A stretch of 64,000 nucleotides of DNA from Verrucomicrobiia bacterium. Its GTDB lineage: Bacteria > Verrucomicrobiota > Verrucomicrobiia > Limisphaerales > UBA1319. Both the position numbers and the translations under genes were made by a program. Under the pieces are notes generated by a model. That model saw only the letters and a list, made by a program, of their open reading frames with translations, was not told where the DNA came from and ran no database searches. The stretch spans positions 640,001 to 704,000 of the forward strand of contig OY760937.1 of assembly GCA_963664225.1 (NCBI GenBank), given 5' to 3'. This document shows, piece by piece, positions 41,406 to 55,904 of the stretch. Position 1 is the stretch's first letter, and the number at the start of each line of letters is the position of its first letter.

Positions 41406-42254
41406 TCAGTGAATCGAGGCGGCCTGGGATTTAAAGTATTCGGTGTAATTCAATGCCTCTTTCGGGAGCAAGTGCAAACCATCCGTCGTCCGATATTCGC
41501 TGCAATCCGGGAGCGCGATATATTTATATTTTGTGGCGGGAAAATAGCGGTAAAACGTTTCGCGAATTATTTTTGGTTTTGGCAAATTGCACAGCCTCGC
41601 ATGGATCGGCATTTCAAAGAACACGACCTGGACGCCTTTTGATTCCAGCTCATTCACACGCCTCCGGATGCTTTCAAAGCGCGAGACAAGCAATTCATCG
41701 GCGGGATTTTCCGAAAACTGTTCGATTTGGCGCGCCAAAATTGTTTCAAAGAACGCGGGATCGAGGACAGTGTCAGCGGCGCCGGACGGCCTCGAGGATT
41801 TTATTTGTTCGAGGAATTTGCGGAATATTCCAGCCGGCTGGTTTTCAGCCCGCAGAGAAGGGAAAACGCGGCGGCAGTCATAAAGGATGGGCGAAAACAA
41901 GGCAGAGGCAAAACCAGAGGACTCTGCCCGCAAAGGCATGTTCATCTCCACATAAACATTCTTTGGCAGAGTTCTGGCGTGAGTGAGGATGCTCAAACCG
42001 TCGTGAATGCTTAAGCCGCCAAAGGAAAGGTTATAGAATCCGGGGAGATTGGTGTTGACCAGGCGGAACGACAGGGAAGATCCCACGATCACATTCTGAA
42101 TGGGATCGCCTTCATGATAAAGCAAGGTTTGCGCCTTGATGACATTGGCCTGCCATTGGTTTTGAGCGGCGTATTCAGGATGCGGGGAGCCTCGAAATAA
42201 AACGGCGTGCAACAAAAGGAACACCAGAGCGGCAATCAGGGCTTTCTTGATCAT
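41406..42254 (-). CDS. SGNH-like periplasmic partner of MBOAT (AlgJ/DltD-like)
   Basis: N-terminal anchor; IVGSS, NLSFGG and DGLH blocks; downstream of the MBOAT gene. Confidence 0.6.
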   Translation of the reverse strand: MIKKALIAALVFLLLHAVLFRGSPHPEYAAQNQWQANVIKAQTLLYHEGDPIQNVIVGSSLSFRLVNTNLPGFYNLSFGGLSIHDGLSILTHARTLPKNVYVEMNMPLRAESSGFASALFSPILYDCRRVFPSLRAENQPAGIFRKFLEQIKSSRPSGAADTVLDPAFFETILARQIEQFSENPADELLVSRFESIRRRVNELESKGVQVVFFEMPIHARLCNLPKPKIIRETFYRYFPATKYKYIALPDCSEYRTTDGLHLLPKEALNYTEYFKSQAASIH

Positions 42255-42266
42255 GGTGTAAGGCTC

Positions 42267-43670
42267 TTAGAATTGAAAATAAATAAAGGTCCCCGGCGAC
42301 CCGCTGTTGGTGACGATCATAAAGATCATGAATCCGTATGCCACGTAATCCAGGTCCCGGAACTTCTGAAAGCCTCCTCGCTGTTTAATCAGGTAAAGGG
42401 CATGGTAAGCCACCACGGGAAACGAATAGATCAGCAAATACATGTTGAGGCCGGCGTCCAATCCGCCGCGATTGGCGACAATGGCTTTCATGTATCCGAT
42501 GACGTGGTGGAACTCAGGCAGTTTGAACAAGAGCCATCCGAGGGTGACGAAGGAAAAAACCATGAGACCCTTGAGAATCATGAGACATCGGTTGTTGCCA
42601 ATGGTGATTCGTTTGCCCAAAAACCTTTCCACAGCCAATGCCAATCCATGAAACCCTCCCCAGACCGCATAGCTCCAGGCCGCTCCGTGCCACAACCCTC
42701 CCAGAAACATCGTAATCATCAAATTAATATACGTTCTCGCGCGGCCTTTGCGGTTACCGCCCAGCGGAATATAAAGGTATTCCATGAGAAAAGTGGACAA
42801 GGAGATGTGCCAGCGTTTCCAAAAATCCTTAAAGGAAGTCGCGATGTAAGGGAAATTAAAGTTGTCCTTGAAGTGGTATCCAAACAACCCTGCCAATCCG
42901 ATTGCAATCAGGGAGTAGCCGGCAAAATCCGCAAAAATCTGGCAGGAATAGCCAAAGAGCATGTTCACCAAGGTCAGAGTGGAGCTGGCTTCGAAATACG
43001 GAAACGCAATCCCAATGGTGTGTTCCTTGAGGTTATCGGCGACCACCATTTTAAGAAAATATCCAAGGACCAGGGACTTGAAACAGCTTTTCCACTTAAT
43101 ATCTTTAAGGGTTTTGACACCAATCTGGGGCAGGAACTCGTGCGCCTTGACAATGGGCCCCGAGATGAGCTGCGGGAAAAATCCTTTGAACAACATGATC
43201 TGTTTTGCATGCTCCACGAACGAGATGGGGACAACGTCTTTGCCCTTGAGATGCTTCTCTTTGAAGACGTCAATGACCAGACTGATGCCTTGAAAAGTGA
43301 AAAACGAGATGCCAATGGGCAATGGAATGGTGACCAGGAATTCCCCGATGGAGCTGGTTTCTTTAAAGAAGGTTCTGGCAAAGAGAGGGCCGTATTTGAA
43401 AAACGACAACACCGCCAGATTTAGGAGGACGCCCAAAGATGCAAAGATCCTCCTGTGCTCGACAGGACCATGGACGATGTAGTAGCTGGATATGATGTTT
43501 ATTCCCACCGAGAATAGCAGCAACAGCACCAAAACCGGCTGGTTATAGGCATAAAAGACCAGGCTCGATACAATAAGAACGGGAATCTGAAGCTTTACCA
43601 GTTGTGGCAGGTAATATGCGACCCATGTGACGATCAATAATGCAATAAATGCGAAGCTGTTAAATAACAT
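42267..43670 (-). CDS. MBOAT O-acyltransferase (AlgI/DltB family)
   Basis: MLFNS, PIGISFFTFQ, FPQLISGPI, DFAGYS, FWKRWHISLS and GLWHGA motifs. Confidence 0.93.
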   Translation of the reverse strand: MLFNSFAFIALLIVTWVAYYLPQLVKLQIPVLIVSSLVFYAYNQPVLVLLLLFSVGINIISSYYIVHGPVEHRRIFASLGVLLNLAVLSFFKYGPLFARTFFKETSSIGEFLVTIPLPIGISFFTFQGISLVIDVFKEKHLKGKDVVPISFVEHAKQIMLFKGFFPQLISGPIVKAHEFLPQIGVKTLKDIKWKSCFKSLVLGYFLKMVVADNLKEHTIGIAFPYFEASSTLTLVNMLFGYSCQIFADFAGYSLIAIGLAGLFGYHFKDNFNFPYIATSFKDFWKRWHISLSTFLMEYLYIPLGGNRKGRARTYINLMITMFLGGLWHGAAWSYAVWGGFHGLALAVERFLGKRITIGNNRCLMILKGLMVFSFVTLGWLLFKLPEFHHVIGYMKAIVANRGGLDAGLNMYLLIYSFPVVAYHALYLIKQRGGFQKFRDLDYVAYGFMIFMIVTNSGSPGTFIYFQF

Positions 43671-44137
43671 GCGGATCGTTGGTTGCCTTATTGGACGTCA
43701 AGAGGAGCCATGTCGTTGTCTTGATGACGCGTGATCCGCTGGCAAGGTTTTGTGGTTAATCCTTTGCGGCGATCTGAGCGTGTCGGAAAATTCAACATTT
43801 ACGATTATTTTTATGCATGGACGGGAGTTGACAAGTTAAAATGATCAAAATGAGAATGGATGGAGCGCATTCTCCGGGGAGGATTCAAGGGATGAGTCGA
43901 TTTTCGGCCGATTTCCGGGGTATTTGAGACCGTGATCAACGTGAAGGCAAAGAAACGTGGATTGTCGTGCGCTTGAAACTGTTGGCTTCAATATTTTTCG
44001 ATATCGATAATAAAGAGGTGATTTAACATAGATCTGAAAACATCCGAATGTTCGCATTGCTCTGATATCCCAGGTGAGAACGGGATCTTCCGCGAAAGCC
44101 ATTTAAGTAAACGCGCCGTTTGCCGATAACATCTGGG

Positions 44138-48655: not shown

Positions 48656-49456
48656 TCAGACCGATTTAACGGCTTGGGACAGTTCTCCGACAAAGGCGGC
48701 CACTTTTTCCACCATGTCCGCATTGGCACCGCCCTGGGCAATCCGGTTGACCACGGCGCTGCCGACAACGACCGCGTCGGCGCTGGCGGCGACCACCCGG
48801 GCCTGTTCGGGTGAGGACACGCCAAACCCCACCGCAATGGGCAGGGGAGTATGGGCGCGAATCCGGGTGATCATGGAGCCAATGTCTGCGGAGACGCTGG
48901 CCTGCATTCCCGTGACACCCTCGCGGGAGACGTAATAGAGGAAGCCCGCGGCATGGCGGACAATGGCGTCGATGCGCGAGTCCGGCGTGGTGGGTGCGAT
49001 GAGGAATATGGGGCACAATTGGGAAGCGCTCATCCATTCCACGTATTGGGTGGATTCCTCAGGCGGCAAATCGAGAATCAGCAGGCCATCGACTCCCGCT
49101 TTGGCGGCGCGTTCGATGAACTGTTGCGGACCGAAGTGATGGATCAGATTATAATAGACGTAAAGAACGATCGGGATTTGGGATTGCGCGCGGATCTGGG
49201 TCACACAATCGAGAATCCCGGCCGGAGTCGTGCCGGACGCCAGGCCGCGTTGGGCGGCCAATTGATTGACCAGCCCGTCGGCGAGGGGATCGCTGAAGGG
49301 GACGCCCAATTCGAGCACGTCCGCGCCCGCCTTGTCCATGGCAAGGGCGAGCCTGCGGGTGTGTTCGAGGTCGGGATCCCCGGCGCCGATATAAATGACC
49401 AATCCTTTGCGCTTGTTTTTGGCCAGTCGCGCGAAACGTTCCTGGATGCGGTTCAT
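48656..49456 (-). CDS. trpA: Tryptophan synthase alpha chain
   Basis: [33 protein letters not shown] and VVGSA motifs. Confidence 0.96.
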
Positions 49457-51270
49457 TGCTCGTAGATCATATCCGAAACGGTGCCGCCGGCCTTGATGAA
49501 CGGAAGCACGTGTTCGCTATATGGCGTGGCCACATCGAGCAGGAACGGCCCCTTGCAATCGAGCATTCGCTGCATTGCGGCCTTGAGGTCCTTTCGGAAG
49601 ATGACCCGTTCACAATCGACGTTAAAGCCTTTGGCAATGGCGACGAAGTCAGGGTAGATCTGGCTCTTCTTCAACGGATCTCCGAGGTAGGTATTGCCAC
49701 GATTACCCGCGTAAAAACGATCTTCCCATTGCATCACCATGCCCAAGTGCTGGTTGTTGAGGATGATGGCCTTGGCGCTGATTTTTTCGATGTGGGCGGT
49801 CGCCAGTTCCTGGATGTTCATGAGGAAGGAGCCATCGCCATCGATATCGACGACCTGTTTGTCGGGACAGGCCACCTTGGCGCCGAGGGCGGCCGGATAG
49901 CCAAAGCCCATGGAACCGAGTCCGGCGCTGGTGAGGAAGCGGCGGGGCTTGTCGAATTTGTAATACTGTCCGGCCCACATCTGGTGCTGGCCCACGCCGG
50001 TGGTGATGATGGCATCGCCGCCGGTCAATTCGTAGAGCATTTCGATGACCATTTGCGGCATGATGATCTGGCTGGCGTCGCCGCCCATGAGTTCGCGGAC
50101 GTGCTGGGACTTGAGCACTTCGTCGGTGACGTGGTAACGCAACGCGCCCTTGATTTTCCACTCTGCGATCTGCTTGTTCCATGCTGAAAAATCGCTTGTC
50201 ACGGGATGGTCCTTCAACAAGGCGTTCAGACGATGAAGGGCGTGCAAAATATCCCCGACCACCGGGAGGTTGGCGGGTTTGTTTTTGTTGATTTCCGAGG
50301 GATCGACATCGACATGGACAATGGTGCCATGCTCGCAAAACTTTTTGACGTTGCCTGTGACCCGGTCATCGAAACGAACGCCAAAGGCCAGGAGCAGGTC
50401 GGCTTTTTCCACGGCCCAATTGGCATAGGGGGTGCCGTGCATGCCCAGCCATTTGAGGGAGAGGGAATTGGTTTCCGGGAAGGCGCCGCAGCCCATGAGG
50501 GTGCTCGTCACGGGGATATGGGTGGCTTCCGCGAATTTGCGCAATTCCTGGCTGGCGCCGCTGCTGATGATGCCGCCGCCGACATAGAGGACGGGGCGCT
50601 CGGCTTTGTTAATGGCCGCGAGGATGTCCAACAAGGCGGAGTCGCTGGCCTCGCGTTTTGGACTGTAGCCGCGCAGGGTGATTTCATCGGAAAAGACCGG
50701 GGCTACGCGGGTCTGCTGGACGTTTTTGGGAATATCGATGAGCACCGGGCCGGGGCGTCCGCTGCTGGCAACGAAAAAAGCCTCTTTGACGATGCGCGCC
50801 AGGTCGTTGGCGTCGGTCACCAGGTAGCTGTGTTTGACCACAGGCAGGGTCATTCCGAAAATATCGGTTTCCTGAAAGGCGTTTTTGCCGATCATGGCCT
50901 GGGCGACCTGCCCGGTGATGGCGACCAGAGGAATGGAGTCCATGTAGGCATCCGCGATGCCGGTGACCAGGTTGGTGGCTCCGGGGCCGCTGGTGGCCAT
51001 GCAAACGCCGACCTTGCCGGAGGCGCGGGCGTAACCTTCCGCAGCGAAAACCCCACCTTGTTCGTGGCGGGGGAGAACCGTGCGGATTTTTTTGGATTTG
51101 GTCAGCGCCTGGTGGATTTCCATGCTGGCGCCGCCCGGATAAGCAAAAATGGTATCAACCCCTTCGCGCTCGAGGGCTGCAACGAGAATTTCGCTGCCCA
51201 GCATTGTGCTCACTGCATTCTTTGCGTCCACGTTTTTTTGCGGTTCCTGCGTTCCAGTCATCTTGCTCAT
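49453..51270 (-). CDS. ilvB: Acetolactate synthase large subunit (biosynthetic)
   Basis: [35 protein letters not shown] and GDGSF...NN TPP motif. Confidence 0.96.
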
Positions 51271-51304
51271 ATCAGCCTTGGGTCGGACGGCCTGGACGGA
51301 GCGT

Positions 51305-51333
51305 GAAAAGACCACGACCGCCGGCAGCCGTGG
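51305..51333 (-). terminator. Attenuator terminator upstream of ilvB
   Basis: Minus strand CCACGGCTGC-CG-GCGGTCGTGG hairpin followed by TCTTTTC. Confidence 0.7.
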
Positions 51334-51466: not shown

Positions 51467-51757
51467 GCATTCCCCCCACTGGTTTTTGGGTTACGAAGGG
51501 AAACGGCGGCCAGGCGGCCCTTGGGCGAGGGGATGGGGTCGGGATGCAACTGGCTTTGGCGGAGGGTTTTGATTGCAATCACAACAAGGGCGAGGTTCAC
51601 AAACAACTGGTTAAAATGAATTTTCTTTGCAATTCAGCCATAGATGGTCTAGTTTGAAGTCAAGCAAAACAATGCAAGTTGCGTGACACTGGCAGGCCCA
51701 ATGGGATGAATGGGGTGAGCGGGCGCCCTGAATCGCAAACGAACAGGTTAGAATACT

Positions 51758-53506
51758 GTGAAAACGATACTCAAGACAAAAAATGTTGTCGCAAAGACAA
51801 CGCCAATTTCCATACCCGCGCATGTGCGGCAGTGGCCGCTGGGGCAGATGCCTCTGTCTGTCCGGCTCGCCGGAGTGCTCCAAAAAATGGGCTTTCGCGT
51901 CCTGGGGGATTTGCACGGCATCCTTTACGACCAGGTGCTCTCAATGCGCAACTGCGGGCAGCGCAGCATTCGCGAGTTGGAGACGCTGGTGGATCGCGTG
52001 GGAGCGGGTGAATTCGATTATGGCAAGGTCAAGGGGCTGGGACTGGAACTGCTGGTTCGCCAGGCCGATGACGCCATCGACAAGATCGACGACCGCGAGC
52101 GCGAGATGCTGCTGATGCGCCTGGGCGGCACGGGCCAGCGCCCGATGACGCTGGAGGAGATCGGAACGGAATTCGATCTGACCCGCGAGCGGGTTCGCCA
52201 GGTGGTCGATTTGCTTTATGATCGAATTTACAAGCATGGCGGTCCCGCGGTGGATTCGATGCTGCGGCGTCTGGCGGAGAAGTGTCTCGAATCGACCTGT
52301 CCGTTGACCCCGGAACTTTTCGACCGGTTGCTTGCGAGCAAATCGATGTCCGGCAAATATCCAGCCGCATTTTACGTTCGACTGGTTGGAGAGCTGCATC
52401 CTGAAATTCCGGCCTGGCCCGATGGTCAGAAGCCTTACCCCAATCTGGACCAGCGCGCACGGGACATCATCCGTCCTGTGGCGGATATCCTGCGTGGGAA
52501 TATCTCCCCTCTGGAATTGTCCGACATTTACAAACGGCTCAAGGAAGCCGGCCAGCCGGCCAATTTAAATCCGAGCGAATTTCTGCGGGCGCTCAAGCAG
52601 TGCAGTTCGCTCACGGTCGAATTCCCCGAACCGGAGCATCCGGTGGTGCGGTTGACGAGCTTGCGCATCTGCGACTGGGTGCAGCGTGTTCTGGCCCAAT
52701 CTCCCCAGCCGTTGCGGCCGGAGGAAATCATCGCCCAAGCCAAGAAGCTGTTTGGCCACGAAGTGCCGCCCATCTCAATCGGGGGATTGCGCAACTCGCT
52801 GCGCCCCGAGCAGGGCATTTACTTGCTGGATCGCCGGGCCTTTGGCATGCGCCAGCATATTCTTCTGCCTGAGAACCTTTGGGCCAAGATGCGCACGGAT
52901 GTTTTCAAGCTGTTGAAGGATGAAAACCGCCCGGTCTCGACGCGCGAAATGCTCAAGCGCAATCGTTTCTCATGGGCCAGCCAGACGAATGTGCATGAAA
53001 TCGCACACATCCTGCGTGAGGACGAGCGGTTTGTCGATCTGGGCCGTTTTCTGTTCGCCTTGAAGACGTGGGGTTTACACGAGCGTGAGCACATCAAGGA
53101 CTTGATTCCCGAGGCGCTCAAGGCTGCGGGACACCCGATGACGGCCACGGAAATCCTGAAGGAACTGCGGCGCAAGCGCTCTGTGGGACGCGCGACCATC
53201 TCCGCGGTGATCCGCCATCACGAGGGGGTCAAACATTATGGTTTTGGTTATTACGGCTTGAAAAACTGGAAGGACATGGACAAGGCCTTCTATGTCACGC
53301 AACCATTGCTGGTGCGCCGGATCATTCTCAACACCGCTCCGCCGCTGACCTTCAGCGGGCTGTGTGAGAAATTGAAGATCCCCGCTAAAGGCAAGCTGGC
53401 CAGCCAGCTTTGGGAAACGATCACCACATTACGCCGGGTCAAGACCAAGCCCGAGACCATGGGGCCTGATACGTTGATCATTCACAAGACCTGGAAGAAA
53501 GAGTGA
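51758..53506 (+). CDS. RNAP alpha-CTD + sigma70 region 4 + multiple winged-helix (HARE-HTH-like) fusion protein
   Basis: LSVRLAGVLQKMG...LGDL...NCGQRSIREL (alpha-CTD); REREMLLMRLG...TLEEIGTEFDLTRERVRQ (sigma4); repeated (V/I)L....P(L/M)...EI units and DERFVDLGRFLFALKTW. Confidence 0.85.
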   Translation: MKTILKTKNVVAKTTPISIPAHVRQWPLGQMPLSVRLAGVLQKMGFRVLGDLHGILYDQVLSMRNCGQRSIRELETLVDRVGAGEFDYGKVKGLGLELLVRQADDAIDKIDDREREMLLMRLGGTGQRPMTLEEIGTEFDLTRERVRQVVDLLYDRIYKHGGPAVDSMLRRLAEKCLESTCPLTPELFDRLLASKSMSGKYPAAFYVRLVGELHPEIPAWPDGQKPYPNLDQRARDIIRPVADILRGNISPLELSDIYKRLKEAGQPANLNPSEFLRALKQCSSLTVEFPEPEHPVVRLTSLRICDWVQRVLAQSPQPLRPEEIIAQAKKLFGHEVPPISIGGLRNSLRPEQGIYLLDRRAFGMRQHILLPENLWAKMRTDVFKLLKDENRPVSTREMLKRNRFSWASQTNVHEIAHILREDERFVDLGRFLFALKTWGLHEREHIKDLIPEALKAAGHPMTATEILKELRRKRSVGRATISAVIRHHEGVKHYGFGYYGLKNWKDMDKAFYVTQPLLVRRIILNTAPPLTFSGLCEKLKIPAKGKLASQLWETITTLRRVKTKPETMGPDTLIIHKTWKKE

Positions 53507-53531
53507 TCTGACATTCCAATGTTTTTTGCAT

Positions 53532-53564
53532 ACGGGTCGGCCTAAAAACCGGCCCGTTTTTTTT
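53532..53564 (+). terminator. Intrinsic terminator
   Basis: ACGGGTCGG...CCGGCCCGT hairpin followed by a T run. Confidence 0.8.
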
Positions 53565-53588
53565 GTGGCTTTTAACCAACAAAGAAGA

Positions 53589-55754
53589 TTACCGCGCTTT
53601 TTCCAAAAGACGGGTGACCAGGTTCGTTTCGGCCAGTGGCCCGGCGCTCAAGGCGAGCAGGGTGGGTTTCCAGGGATCGACCTCCAACGTGAAGCGGTTC
53701 CCATGCGCTTGCAAGGTTTGGGCGCGCAGGTCATAAACATAGGCGGCATTCTTCAAGGCTACATTCACGCGAACCGGTTTTTCCAAATGCTCGTTGCCAC
53801 CCGCCTGTTTGAGGGACTCGCTCATGTGATAGGCGATGTTTCGTTCGAGGGCAACGAGTTGGGTGGCGCCCAATTGGAACCGATGGATCAGAACGTGTGG
53901 GTTTGAAGCACTGTCATCGACCGCGCTTACGATGATTTCAGGGGCGAACGGCATTTGGGACTGAAGCCAGTGTGTCCAATCCGGGCTGGGTTTGGCGCTT
54001 AGTCGATCCGATGCGTAGTTTGCGATATCGCCGTCATGACGTTGCGCGGGGGTGGTGTTGGTGGCGCAGGCGGCCATGGCGCACTCCCACGAGAGCGATG
54101 ATGGGAATTGGTCTTCCAAGGGACTGCGAGAACGGAGCTTTCCGTGAGCATCAAAAATTCCCGGTGTGCCGTCGGAGAACACGACGTGATGGTCATTGGT
54201 CAGAAACTTTTGGATGCGCGCTCCTTCGGTGTCGGACAACGCCAGGGCCTCTGGCAGAACCAAGGCGCGGATGCCCTGACTGTCCAGAAAACCGTTCTCC
54301 ACTTGTTCGGATGCGACGAAGGTGGGGGAGTAGCCCGAGTCCTGGAGGAGTTTGAGCCAGCTCTCGCGCACGCGCACCTGGCGGTTGTGATCCGCCTCGT
54401 AACTGGAGAAGCGGCGGAGCCATGTGGAGCCGTCCACACAGGATTCGACGAGCCAGTCCGCCTGGATGGAGGGTTGGGAATAAAGGATGGCGATGGGATC
54501 GTGCAGCCTTTGCGCGGTCATGAAAAGTCGGGCCAAAGGTCCGGTCATTTCCTTAAGCACAGGAATCAGCGGCTTGGCGCGCGGGGTCAGGGCGTAGTCC
54601 GGGGATTTCCAGTCGATGCAATCCTCGCTCCACCAGACGATGCACCCTTTGTCGCCCTGGAACAGCAAATGCCACAGGCGGCGCGTGGCGGGATTGGTTT
54701 CCTTTTCAAATACGGTGGTCAGAAATGGCTTGCCGGGCATGAAAGAACCCAGTATTTCGCGCGCCGAACCGATGTCGTAGGGTTCGATCCAATCCAGCGC
54801 GTTGGCCATCCGCCACAAATCGTAGCCGCCAAAGGCCGAGGGCATTTGTGTGCCTTCGATTCCAACCGGAGTGCCGGGATCGATGGTGTGAATGGACGCG
54901 CGCAAATTGTCCAGGGTGCGGGCCAGGCTCAGATCCATGTAGGTCCTGAAATCGGCCCAGGGACTGAAATTCCATCGGGTGGGCTGTTTGCGGGCTTCGG
55001 ACAGAACGAGCTGGATTTTCTGGACCGCCTGCCAATCGGGATTGCCTCGGGGCAGTGCATCTCCACTGGCCAGTCGATTTTTAATCTGGTCCGTGGTGAA
55101 AGGGCGCACATCATCCCAGGCGGCGAATTCGGTTTGCCATTGGTGATTCAAGGCGTCCAATGTCGCATACCGGGTTTTCAACCACAGACGGAATCCATTG
55201 AGCGCATGAGGCGAAAAATCGTAATCGAACGGATTGGCGGAGATCGTGATGGAAATTTCGTCGCGTAAATCATAGGCCAGGGGCTTGAACGGCTGGTTCT
55301 GGCGGGCGTTGTTCAGGACCTGCTTGCGGGACCAATCGATCCATGCCGGATCGTCCAGTGAATGATCGCGTTCGAGAGCCGCGGTATCACGCGTGCGCGA
55401 CCATGCGGTGACCAATGACTCCCAATCCGCAGCGCGGGAGTTGAACTTGAGGCAAAGGCCGCGATTGACCACGTTTTCCACATAATACGGAAATTGATTT
55501 GTTGCCCAGAAGTCGGGCGCGGCGTCGCCGAAAACCATTCCTGTATTGATGCCCATTTCCTCCATGCGCTGTTTGAAAAGGGGCAGCCGGGATGCATCTT
55601 TCCAGGCGGAGTCGCCAATCCAGAGAATCGTGCGGTAATCGTTCCATGGGCGGATGGCATCAGGCCGGGGCGTTTGTGCCGGGGCAAAAAGCGGGAGCAG
55701 AAACAGGGCGGCAATAAAAGGCCACGACCGTTGGATTCGATGTGAGAATGGCAT
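53589..55754 (-). CDS. Secreted GH42/beta-galactosidase-like glycoside hydrolase with trimerisation (GATase-like) domain
   Basis: Signal peptide; 'FRLWLKTRYATLDALNHQW..F..WDDV.P', 'WADFR.Y', 'IAILYS' and 'ALVLP' motifs. Confidence 0.75.
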   Translation of the reverse strand: MPFSHRIQRSWPFIAALFLLPLFAPAQTPRPDAIRPWNDYRTILWIGDSAWKDASRLPLFKQRMEEMGINTGMVFGDAAPDFWATNQFPYYVENVVNRGLCLKFNSRAADWESLVTAWSRTRDTAALERDHSLDDPAWIDWSRKQVLNNARQNQPFKPLAYDLRDEISITISANPFDYDFSPHALNGFRLWLKTRYATLDALNHQWQTEFAAWDDVRPFTTDQIKNRLASGDALPRGNPDWQAVQKIQLVLSEARKQPTRWNFSPWADFRTYMDLSLARTLDNLRASIHTIDPGTPVGIEGTQMPSAFGGYDLWRMANALDWIEPYDIGSAREILGSFMPGKPFLTTVFEKETNPATRRLWHLLFQGDKGCIVWWSEDCIDWKSPDYALTPRAKPLIPVLKEMTGPLARLFMTAQRLHDPIAILYSQPSIQADWLVESCVDGSTWLRRFSSYEADHNRQVRVRESWLKLLQDSGYSPTFVASEQVENGFLDSQGIRALVLPEALALSDTEGARIQKFLTNDHHVVFSDGTPGIFDAHGKLRSRSPLEDQFPSSLSWECAMAACATNTTPAQRHDGDIANYASDRLSAKPSPDWTHWLQSQMPFAPEIIVSAVDDSASNPHVLIHRFQLGATQLVALERNIAYHMSESLKQAGGNEHLEKPVRVNVALKNAAYVYDLRAQTLQAHGNRFTLEVDPWKPTLLALSAGPLAETNLVTRLLEKAR

Positions 55755-55904
55755 GCATGAAAAATAGTGATTTTGAGCACGCTTTACCAGAGCGAATGTG
55801 TGGTTCTGCAAGGCACGCCGTCACGTCCTGTTTGCGTTGATTCGGGCGGTTTGGGCAAATCCCGCTGGCCACTGGCGTGCTTCTGCATTAAGATCGTGAT
55901 CAAC

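Follow-up and report, generated by a model that had tools for sequence, protein, structure and literature searches.

What could a protein assembled from promoter-recognition parts of RNA polymerase (RNAP) do when its gene stands on its own? The question is raised by a 64,000-nucleotide stretch of the genome of a Verrucomicrobiia bacterium (Limisphaerales; UBA1319), positions 640,001 to 704,000 of contig OY760937.1 in assembly GCA_963664225.1 (the window, whose own coordinates are used below). A coding sequence at 51758..53506 on the + strand (GTG start, stop codon included) encodes a protein of 582 amino acids (aa) in which a domain like the RNAP alpha subunit's C-terminal domain (alpha-CTD) is followed by region 4 of a sigma-70 factor (sigma4), a helical linker and five winged helices. 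The open frame around it amounts to 584 aa; as a TAG lies in frame 3 codons upstream of the GTG, a longer N-terminus is impossible, and orthologues align from residue 1. A preliminary description of the locus had proposed the alpha-CTD, a sigma4 with an intact recognition helix and no region 2, about five winged-helix repeats likened to HARE-HTH domains, and a standalone, terminator-bounded gene for a transcription or defence system. The reading put forward here, to which about even confidence is given, is that the product is a stand-alone, non-enzymatic DNA "reader", predicted to act as a transcription or nucleoid-associated factor.

Domain architecture of the 582-aa protein

Structure prediction, named in the preliminary description as one way to place the domain boundaries, gave a very confident AlphaFold2 (AF2) model based on a 64-sequence family alignment, A1 (mean predicted local distance difference test, pLDDT, 92.5; predicted template modelling score 0.74). 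It resolved an alpha-CTD-like domain (residues 27-82), a four-helix sigma4 (residues 96-160), linker helices (residues 163-213) and five winged helices. No enzymatic domain was found in the protein by the Pfam scan. All its features lie on the + strand.

The sigma4 domain (52043..52237) matched Pfam Sigma70_r4 (PF04545) over residues 106-149 with 37.2 bits, against a gathering cut-off of 24.1. Its best sequence matches in the Protein Data Bank (PDB) were primary sigma factors, including SigA (7l7b_F, 37.2 bits), whose TRERIRQ aligned with TRERVRQ (residues 142-148; 52181..52201), the counterpart of the helix that reads the -35 element in primary sigma factors. Within this helix, R143, E144, R145, R147 and Q148 were at least 90% conserved in A1 and, together with T142, invariant in a closer set of sequences (A2), and the three sigma-70-type factors of the same genome carry TRER[IV]RQ. 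Foldseek superposed the domain on 4g6d_A (root-mean-square deviation, rmsd, 1.4 Å; 57 columns, 38% identity) and also matched it to 1ku7_A, a sigma4/-35 DNA complex, while VIA, an aligner independent of Foldseek, matched it to 2h27_D, region 4 of sigmaE on -35 DNA (Z 7.8, rmsd 1.9, 69 aligned). Neither Sigma70_r2 nor Sigma70_r3 was matched in the protein at E<=10 with Pfam, and NCBIfam sigma models aligned to it by their C-terminal ~50 positions only. The proposed intact helix and missing region 2 were thereby both upheld, and, being devoid of sigma regions 1-3, the protein is not able to serve as an initiation factor. A broken sigma factor was dropped as an explanation, no remnants of regions 1-3 being present.

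The N-terminal module (51836..52003) scored 0.9 bit below the cut-off of Pfam RNA_pol_A_CTD (residues 27-75; 22.9 bits against 23.8), and the same domain in relatives scored well above it (up to 102.6 bits, with 3 copies). All 28 PDB sequence matches of residues 21-85 were RpoA (best E 0.0014), and the domain superposed on 3n4m_B (Foldseek, rmsd 1.0 Å over 60 columns) and on 1z3e_B (VIA, Z 9.7, rmsd 1.7, 64 aligned), which bears out the alpha-CTD assigned to the N-terminus. The arginine of its SVR motif, R36, and the G67-x-R69-S70 turn are taken to be the equivalents of Escherichia coli alpha R265 and of G296, K298 (an arginine here) and S299. RpoA models of NCBIfam aligned only over their positions ~233-320, and the N-terminal dimerisation/assembly domain of alpha had no Pfam match in the protein.

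The family-specific linker (residues 163-231; 52244..52450) corresponds to no Pfam family, and its residues C176, P182, Y206, R208, L209, P218, W220 and Q224 are invariant in A2. It is followed by exactly five H-H-H-beta-beta units in the AF2 model, each holding one of the five repeats listed in the preliminary description. Winged helix 1 (residues 232-299; 52451..52654) gave a weak WH_Rok match and in VIA resembled LOTUS and cullin WHB domains (Z 8.0-8.4). Winged helix 2 (residues 304-365; 52667..52852) was delimited by the predicted secondary structure, and winged helix 3 (residues 372-435; 52871..53062; weak TFIIE_beta match) carries DLGRFLFAL, the most conserved motif of the family. Winged helix 4 (residues 446-501; 53093..53260), which is HARE-HTH-like, matched phrog_12313 and phrog_4665, with many winged-helix structural matches over residues 444-506 (VIA, Z 8-9.4), and winged helix 5 (residues 509-576; 53282..53485) is the most basic unit, with an isoelectric point (pI) of 10.2. 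Overall, the protein is basic (pI 9.67, net charge +23), and so are its five winged helices (pI 8.2-10.2).

The likeness to HARE-HTH (PF05066), a family that includes the N-terminal domain of RNAP delta, held for the winged-helix fold and for relatives; in the 582-aa protein itself a partial match (residues 447-472) reached 19.3 bits against a cut-off of 25.9. Among 12 relatives scanned, 3 passed this cut-off; scores above it were obtained for P0054 (51.8 bits), P0147 (29.5), P0098 (26.4) and a member at locus L130 (36.6). Mapped by its offset from sigma4, winged helix 2 would be the position that scores as HARE-HTH in P0054 and P0147.

A terminator-like hairpin (53532-53557; 9 pairs, 7 of them GC) with a T-run follows the stop codon (53532..53567, + strand). 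The region shows no excess of sites of this kind (4, compared to 3.2 ± 1.8 in shuffled sequences).

A sizeable family with a short and a long form

The 582-aa protein belongs to a family with the architecture (alpha-CTD)n-sigma4-linker-(wHTH)n, where wHTH stands for winged helix-turn-helix, as full-length collinear homology extended over the linker and the DLGRFLFAL winged helix. Of 8,000 candidates scored in a word-indexed search, 156 reached E<=0.001, and most of the 120 matches listed carry the Pfam alpha-CTD and Sigma70_r4 domains, often with HARE-HTH. An exhaustive HMMER search of cluster representatives returned 3,143 at E<=0.001, 576 at 1e-10 and 219 at 1e-30. Given full-length homologues and purifying selection (see below), the architecture is more than chance. 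No experimental study of any family member was found in the literature search, in agreement with the earlier statement that similar fusions had been noted only computationally; Aravind and Iyer are said to have noted an alpha-CTD/sigma4/HARE-HTH family in this way in 2012.

Most full-length relatives measure 750-950 aa, and homology to these long forms was full-length up to E 8e-194 (P0024); residues 16-581 of the query, for example, align with 189-754 of an 897-aa protein. The additional N-terminal part of the long forms contains 1-2 further alpha-CTDs (12 relatives scanned), and their C-terminal extension, which weakly resembles winged helix 3 of the 582-aa protein, is probably another winged helix. 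The short form is thus shorter than most relatives at both ends, with one alpha-CTD instead of 2-3 and without the extra winged helix or helices at the C-terminus.

In its genome (a single contig, 96% complete) the gene is single-copy. Full-length orthologues were present in all 9 other genomes of the same family, one of them split over two contigs, and in only 1 of the 31 other families of the order that were sampled. One orthologue (G004:C519:2400-4145, L006), in a 75%-complete assembly, contains an in-frame TAA, which may be an assembly error or indicate a pseudogene. Wider distribution searches used the non-sigma C-terminal 414 aa as query: 5 of 341 genomes from the order's other families matched (two partially), and none of 300 other genomes sampled across the phylum did so at E<=1e-10. 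In Planctomycetota, a family profile run over 251 genomes, with only 3 candidates scored per genome, yielded 4 multi-domain members and 3 alpha-CTD-only matches. No family relatives were found on viral contigs or plasmids. When genome contigs were scanned with A2, the LTRERVRQ pattern drew in ordinary sigma factors in such numbers that only 1 of 80 loci was a true orthologue.

Gene neighbourhoods of the long forms

A metagenome scan with a C-terminal alignment recovered 23 loci, 7 near (70-95% identity) and 16 distant (33-45%). Thirteen of the distant loci were analysed, several of them near-identical, and three contigs shorter than 2.6 kb were excluded. An open reading frame (ORF) of ~193-195 aa followed the long-form member on the same strand at 7 of the 13 loci, abutting or overlapping it in 6, and an ORF of ~592 aa (537 aa in one) came next in 6 of those 7. 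Downstream of the long-form member, a C5 cytosine methylase was encoded in 3 loci and a Vsr endonuclease in 3 loci. Another locus combined a long-form member with a NOV_C protein, and a further arrangement, likewise found in genome G644, consisted of a PIN gene, a long-form member and a 304-aa protein without known family. In such neighbourhoods the closest long forms head restriction-modification (R-M)-like cassettes. On two nearly identical contigs (L153:1854-4862 and L154:72-2360), a cassette-linked member is split into two ORFs by one in-frame stop.

A variant cassette with a different nuclease was seen in genome G775 (L128:44-5390, same as L151), where PIN, a 114-aa ORF, the long-form member, an Mrr_cat endonuclease and a C5 methylase are tightly arranged on the same strand; the endonuclease matches the PADLOC PDC-S02 and type IV mREase models. 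In a group of near-identical contigs, at L141:1626-4160 (also L140 and L142, and in G644 at L127:1598-4132, - strand), a long form is cut at the same place by one in-frame TGA into parts of 304 aa (alpha-CTD and sigma4) and 539 aa (winged helices), which could represent a true split, a recoding site or a shared mutation.

The ~193-aa partner matched no family in Pfam, PADLOC or NCBIfam, and fell only into unnamed Atlas clusters. The ~592-aa partner, which has 1,020 homologues, had no Pfam match (permissive scan, no GHKL), nor any PADLOC or meaningful PDB profile match, and none of its 120 listed homologues carried a Pfam domain. The nearest named ESM-Atlas clusters (scores 0.97-0.98) contain PF13589 HATPase_c_3 in 77-98% of their members, with Morc6_S5 in 27% of one such cluster, and the consensus segments EWLKNSxDA, IDFVGM and GGHGNGGK presumably represent N-, G1- and G2-like boxes of GHKL proteins. 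An AF2 model of this partner from a 5-sequence alignment was unusable (pLDDT 35.6). The protein is therefore treated as a candidate MORC-like GHKL ATPase, a lead rather than a result. Its identification as a plain type II restriction enzyme was dropped, the BbrUII/HgiDII-type NCBIfam match being weak (24 bits) and partial. At least 10 of the 120 listed homologues share the size of their longest contig with a long-form member, an indirect sign of widespread linkage.

The three Planctomycetota members examined (L130, L131 and L132, in genomes G527, G367 and G400) are solo genes of ~790 aa with 2-3 alpha-CTDs. An AhpC/TSA peroxiredoxin gene lies upstream of them, and a convergent gene for an Rv2179c-like 3'-5' exoribonuclease lies downstream in L130 and L131. 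Homologue neighbourhoods, by which the preliminary description had hoped to tell defence islands from housekeeping regions, differed: the closest long forms are cassette-linked, the short forms lie among housekeeping genes and the Planctomycetota members are solo.

Context, selection and expression of the short form

The window copy lies between a divergent ilvB-like/trpA pair and a convergent GH42-like gene, with DHH, RNase PH, PrmA and BamA genes farther along. Its synteny is kept within the genus only; in other genera the neighbours include MetH, PurM, BipA, a histidine kinase with its response regulator, CorC/CNNM, GatB, MurC, Lnt and an aldo-keto reductase. Neither defence genes nor a recurring partner were found near the 9 short-form orthologues examined. 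The description of the gene as standalone is borne out, as no partner genes lie nearby and the neighbours are convergent or divergent housekeeping genes. In the window genome, searches for the ~193-aa and ~592-aa partners, for the methylase and Vsr of the cassettes and for the NOV_C and 304-aa proteins gave no homologue; only one distant Mrr-like gene is located ~190 kb from the 582-aa gene. A search for the ~592-aa partner in G000 and 40 related genomes (41 in all, with 9 of the family among the relatives), run without positive control, found nothing. No remnants of the long-form N- or C-terminal extensions were detected around the gene; the extensions matched only the alpha-CTD and winged helix 3 of the 582-aa protein itself, as paralogous repeats.

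The gene is under purifying selection. Among the 9 orthologues, the pairwise ratio of nonsynonymous to synonymous substitution rates (dN/dS) was 0.02 and 0.11 in the two unsaturated pairs and 0.06-0.25 in the others with finite dS, several pairs being saturated. Contigs from RNA libraries (four runs, two studies; 90-97% identical to the window) span 51703-53518, with 5' ends at 51703-51740, and an RNA-library contig runs into the terminator-like hairpin. The intergenic segment 51452-51619 was uncovered in all runs, 51620-51703 had an X5 trace of 0.06, and nothing was seen beyond 53551. These bounds hint weakly that close relatives make a monocistronic transcript.

Relationship between short and long forms

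In a tree of 27 rows (quick IQ-TREE search, Planctomycetota outgroup), the 12 short forms fell on one side of a branch with support 72, and 11 of them formed a clade with support 97. The cassette-linked long forms constituted two or three groups beside the short forms, the base being a polytomy. The truncation is most simply regarded as derived, since the outgroup and the cassette-linked groups alike have long architectures. The tree would fit either a loss of the cassette in the short-form lineage or a gain of the cassette in the long-form groups, and does not decide between them.

Proposed role and alternative explanations

In RNAP, the upstream half of bacterial promoters is read by two modules, sigma region 4 and the alpha-CTD. 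Both occur here outside RNAP, with conserved DNA-contact residues, in a protein without an enzymatic domain. The protein comprises seven modules of a nucleic-acid-binding type. DNA binding is inferred from the strict conservation of residues that contact the -35 element, from the arginine and the turn kept in the alpha-CTD and from the basic charge of the winged helices; a sequence preference, a regulatory role and descent from a cassette-linked ancestor are likewise proposed. The sigma4 module, with its -35-reading helix kept, would contact a TTGACA-like hexamer, the alpha-CTD-like module would contact the adjacent A/T-rich minor groove, and the five basic winged helices, packed in one confident multi-domain body, would extend the DNA contact. 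As the first gene of an R-M-like cassette, the long-form reader probably tells the ATPase/nuclease/methylase set where to act, and the short-form lineage keeps a shortened copy without the cassette, which most likely works alone near promoters as a transcription or nucleoid-associated factor. A more far-reaching version, doubtful as a whole, is that one verrucomicrobial family took over a cassette reader, cut it down to alpha-CTD, sigma4 and five winged helices and made it a reader of -35 and UP-like DNA, independent of RNAP, which marks, occludes or organises sigma-70-type promoters genome-wide. On this version, promoter-recognition parts of the polymerase itself would have been assembled into a transcription factor.

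Several observations weigh against the proposed DNA reader or parts of it. The sigma4 domain as a whole is acidic (pI 4.9), and two DNA determinants of the alpha-CTD differ, with G39 and V40 in place of N268 and C269. Winged helices 3 and 4 are very highly conserved, which could equally mean a protein-binding surface. A search for stacked -35-like boxes upstream of 9 orthologues revealed no common pattern and so yielded no target site. The RNA-library contigs stem from relatives, and such libraries may contain DNA. With an unresolved tree base and solo Planctomycetota members, the solo state could moreover be ancestral instead of derived.

One rival explanation is a factor that binds RNAP, with sigma4 placed on the beta-flap tip and the HARE-type helices behaving like delta, making it a competitor or appropriator of sigma instead of a factor acting through DNA binding alone. 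All three module types derive from RNAP subunits, the sigma4 fold is very close to that of sigma4 solved with the beta-flap tip (7kuf_B and 6ido_A, probability 1.00 in Foldseek), and winged helix 4 fits onto small chains in RNAP complexes from Gram-positive bacteria (8x6g_E, Z 8.4; 7f75_L, Z 8.1), which are guessed to be delta. This explanation is nevertheless considered unlikely: the invariant residues are the DNA-contact ones, winged helix 4 has no PDB sequence link to delta and HARE-HTH stays sub-threshold in the 582-aa protein, and the long-form relatives sit in R-M-like cassettes, not beside RNAP genes. Co-folding of the whole protein (A1) with the RpoB flap domain of its own genome (L156:3802-4140) scored 0.00 in both runs, the fold of the partner being uncertain, and speaks neither for nor against binding.

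Another rival is a defence sensor or decoy, in which sigma4 and the alpha-CTD, as targets of phage early proteins, would be mimicked, and which would act with unlinked effectors or by sequestering phage anti-sigma or alpha-modifying factors. In its favour, the nearest long forms share their cassettes with interchangeable nucleases (Mrr, NOV_C, the ~592-aa protein) and PIN genes, segments of MzaA and PglW are the best matches in NCBIfam and PADLOC, and the genome contains the distant Mrr-like gene mentioned above. In the C-terminal half of PglW (type-2 BREX), moreover, an alpha-CTD-like domain and three wHTH are described as a sensory hub (PMC12839542). The short form, however, has neither effector, methylase nor partner near its 9 orthologues and no cassette partners in its genome; its retention in 9 of 9 genomes, its dN/dS of 0.02-0.25 and its housekeeping surroundings are unlike patchy, island-borne defence genes, and viral contigs and plasmids yielded no member of the family. 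A defence role of the window copy is accordingly held to be improbable. The defence-system idea of the preliminary description is supported for the longer relatives, with their R-M-like cassettes, and not for the window copy, which lacks partners, lies in a housekeeping context and is fixed under selection. Being shorter than most relatives at both ends and having lost its cassette neighbours, the gene might also be taken for a decaying, functionless remnant of a cassette gene. This is scarcely credible, as it is contradicted by the same dN/dS values, by intact frames in the 8 other genomes examined, by the very confident AF2 model, by RNA-library coverage and by the lack of leftovers of the missing parts around the gene.

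Should the protein bind promoter-like DNA by itself, it would represent a new means of regulating sigma-70-type promoters or of competing for them. The cassette-linked long forms (presumed targeting subunits of MORC-like R-M) and the solo form under purifying selection make a natural pair, which could illustrate how a defence part is recruited into core physiology.

Other features of the window

At 48656-51315 (- strand), the trpA gene overlaps by 4 bases the end of the acetolactate-synthase-like gene, which encodes a thiamine-pyrophosphate enzyme; this pairing of trpA with a branched-chain amino-acid gene is unusual and is kept in the same-genus genome G001. Just upstream of the ilvB-like start codon lies a terminator-like hairpin of 9 pairs (51312-51333, - strand), maybe a leader/attenuator or a chance occurrence. 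On the other side of the 582-aa gene, positions 53589-55811 (- strand) encode a poorly characterised, glycoside-hydrolase-like protein of 740 aa, which has a hydrophobic segment at its N-terminus and matches Glyco_hydro_42 only weakly and in part (31 bits). At 42001-44000, where a gene for an MBOAT-family acyltransferase and a 282-aa ORF without annotation lie, the GC content drops to 0.478, compared to ~0.57 elsewhere, and the segment may be foreign.

Comparison with known systems

With the primary sigma-70 factors (RpoD/SigA), the 582-aa protein has in common the fold of region 4 and the recognition-helix residues TRER[VI]RQ, and differs from them by the absence of regions 1-3. With RNAP alpha it shares the fold of the C-terminal domain (Z 9.7) and the SVR and G-x-R-S DNA-contact positions, but not the N-terminal assembly domain or the residues equivalent to N268 and C269. 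The best global Foldseek match of the winged-helix chain was the C-terminal tandem of winged helices in SelB (1lva, E 5.6e-5), an architectural analogy only (template modelling score 0.20-0.33, rmsd 11 Å, 13% identity).

Among defence systems, MORC/paraMORC ATPases are described by Iyer, Abhiman & Aravind 2008 (PMC2292703) in R-M operons beside Vsr and cytosine methylases, the same gene company as that of the long forms, with their GHKL-candidate protein, C5 methylase and Vsr. The word "sigma" is absent from that paper, and no such neighbours flank the window gene. In NCBIfam and PADLOC, the best match of the 582-aa protein, over its sigma4 segment, was MzaA (NF041931), a sigma-70-family protein of the MZA anti-phage system, with 44.4 bits against a cut-off of 800 and only positions 645-693 of 726 aligned; the literature search for MzaA returned unrelated papers only. 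The sensory half of PglW appears to be the nearest published description found, since it likewise has several winged helices after an alpha-CTD-like helical domain, interpreted together as a DNA-binding/sensing apparatus (PMC12839542). In PADLOC, the PglW profile matched residues 26-82 here (14.1 bits) and the alpha-CTD and sigma4 in long forms, but these scores (14-24 bits) are far below membership, and the 582-aa protein has no NERD nuclease, kinases or iSTAND.

The closest counterpart is the uncurated (alpha-CTD)n-sigma4-HARE-HTH/winged-helix family itself, which shows the same module order and full-length homology. Compared to most of its members, the window copy has one alpha-CTD, no extra C-terminal winged helix and no cassette genes. 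The architecture itself is not new; what is new is its shortened, stand-alone and lineage-fixed form.

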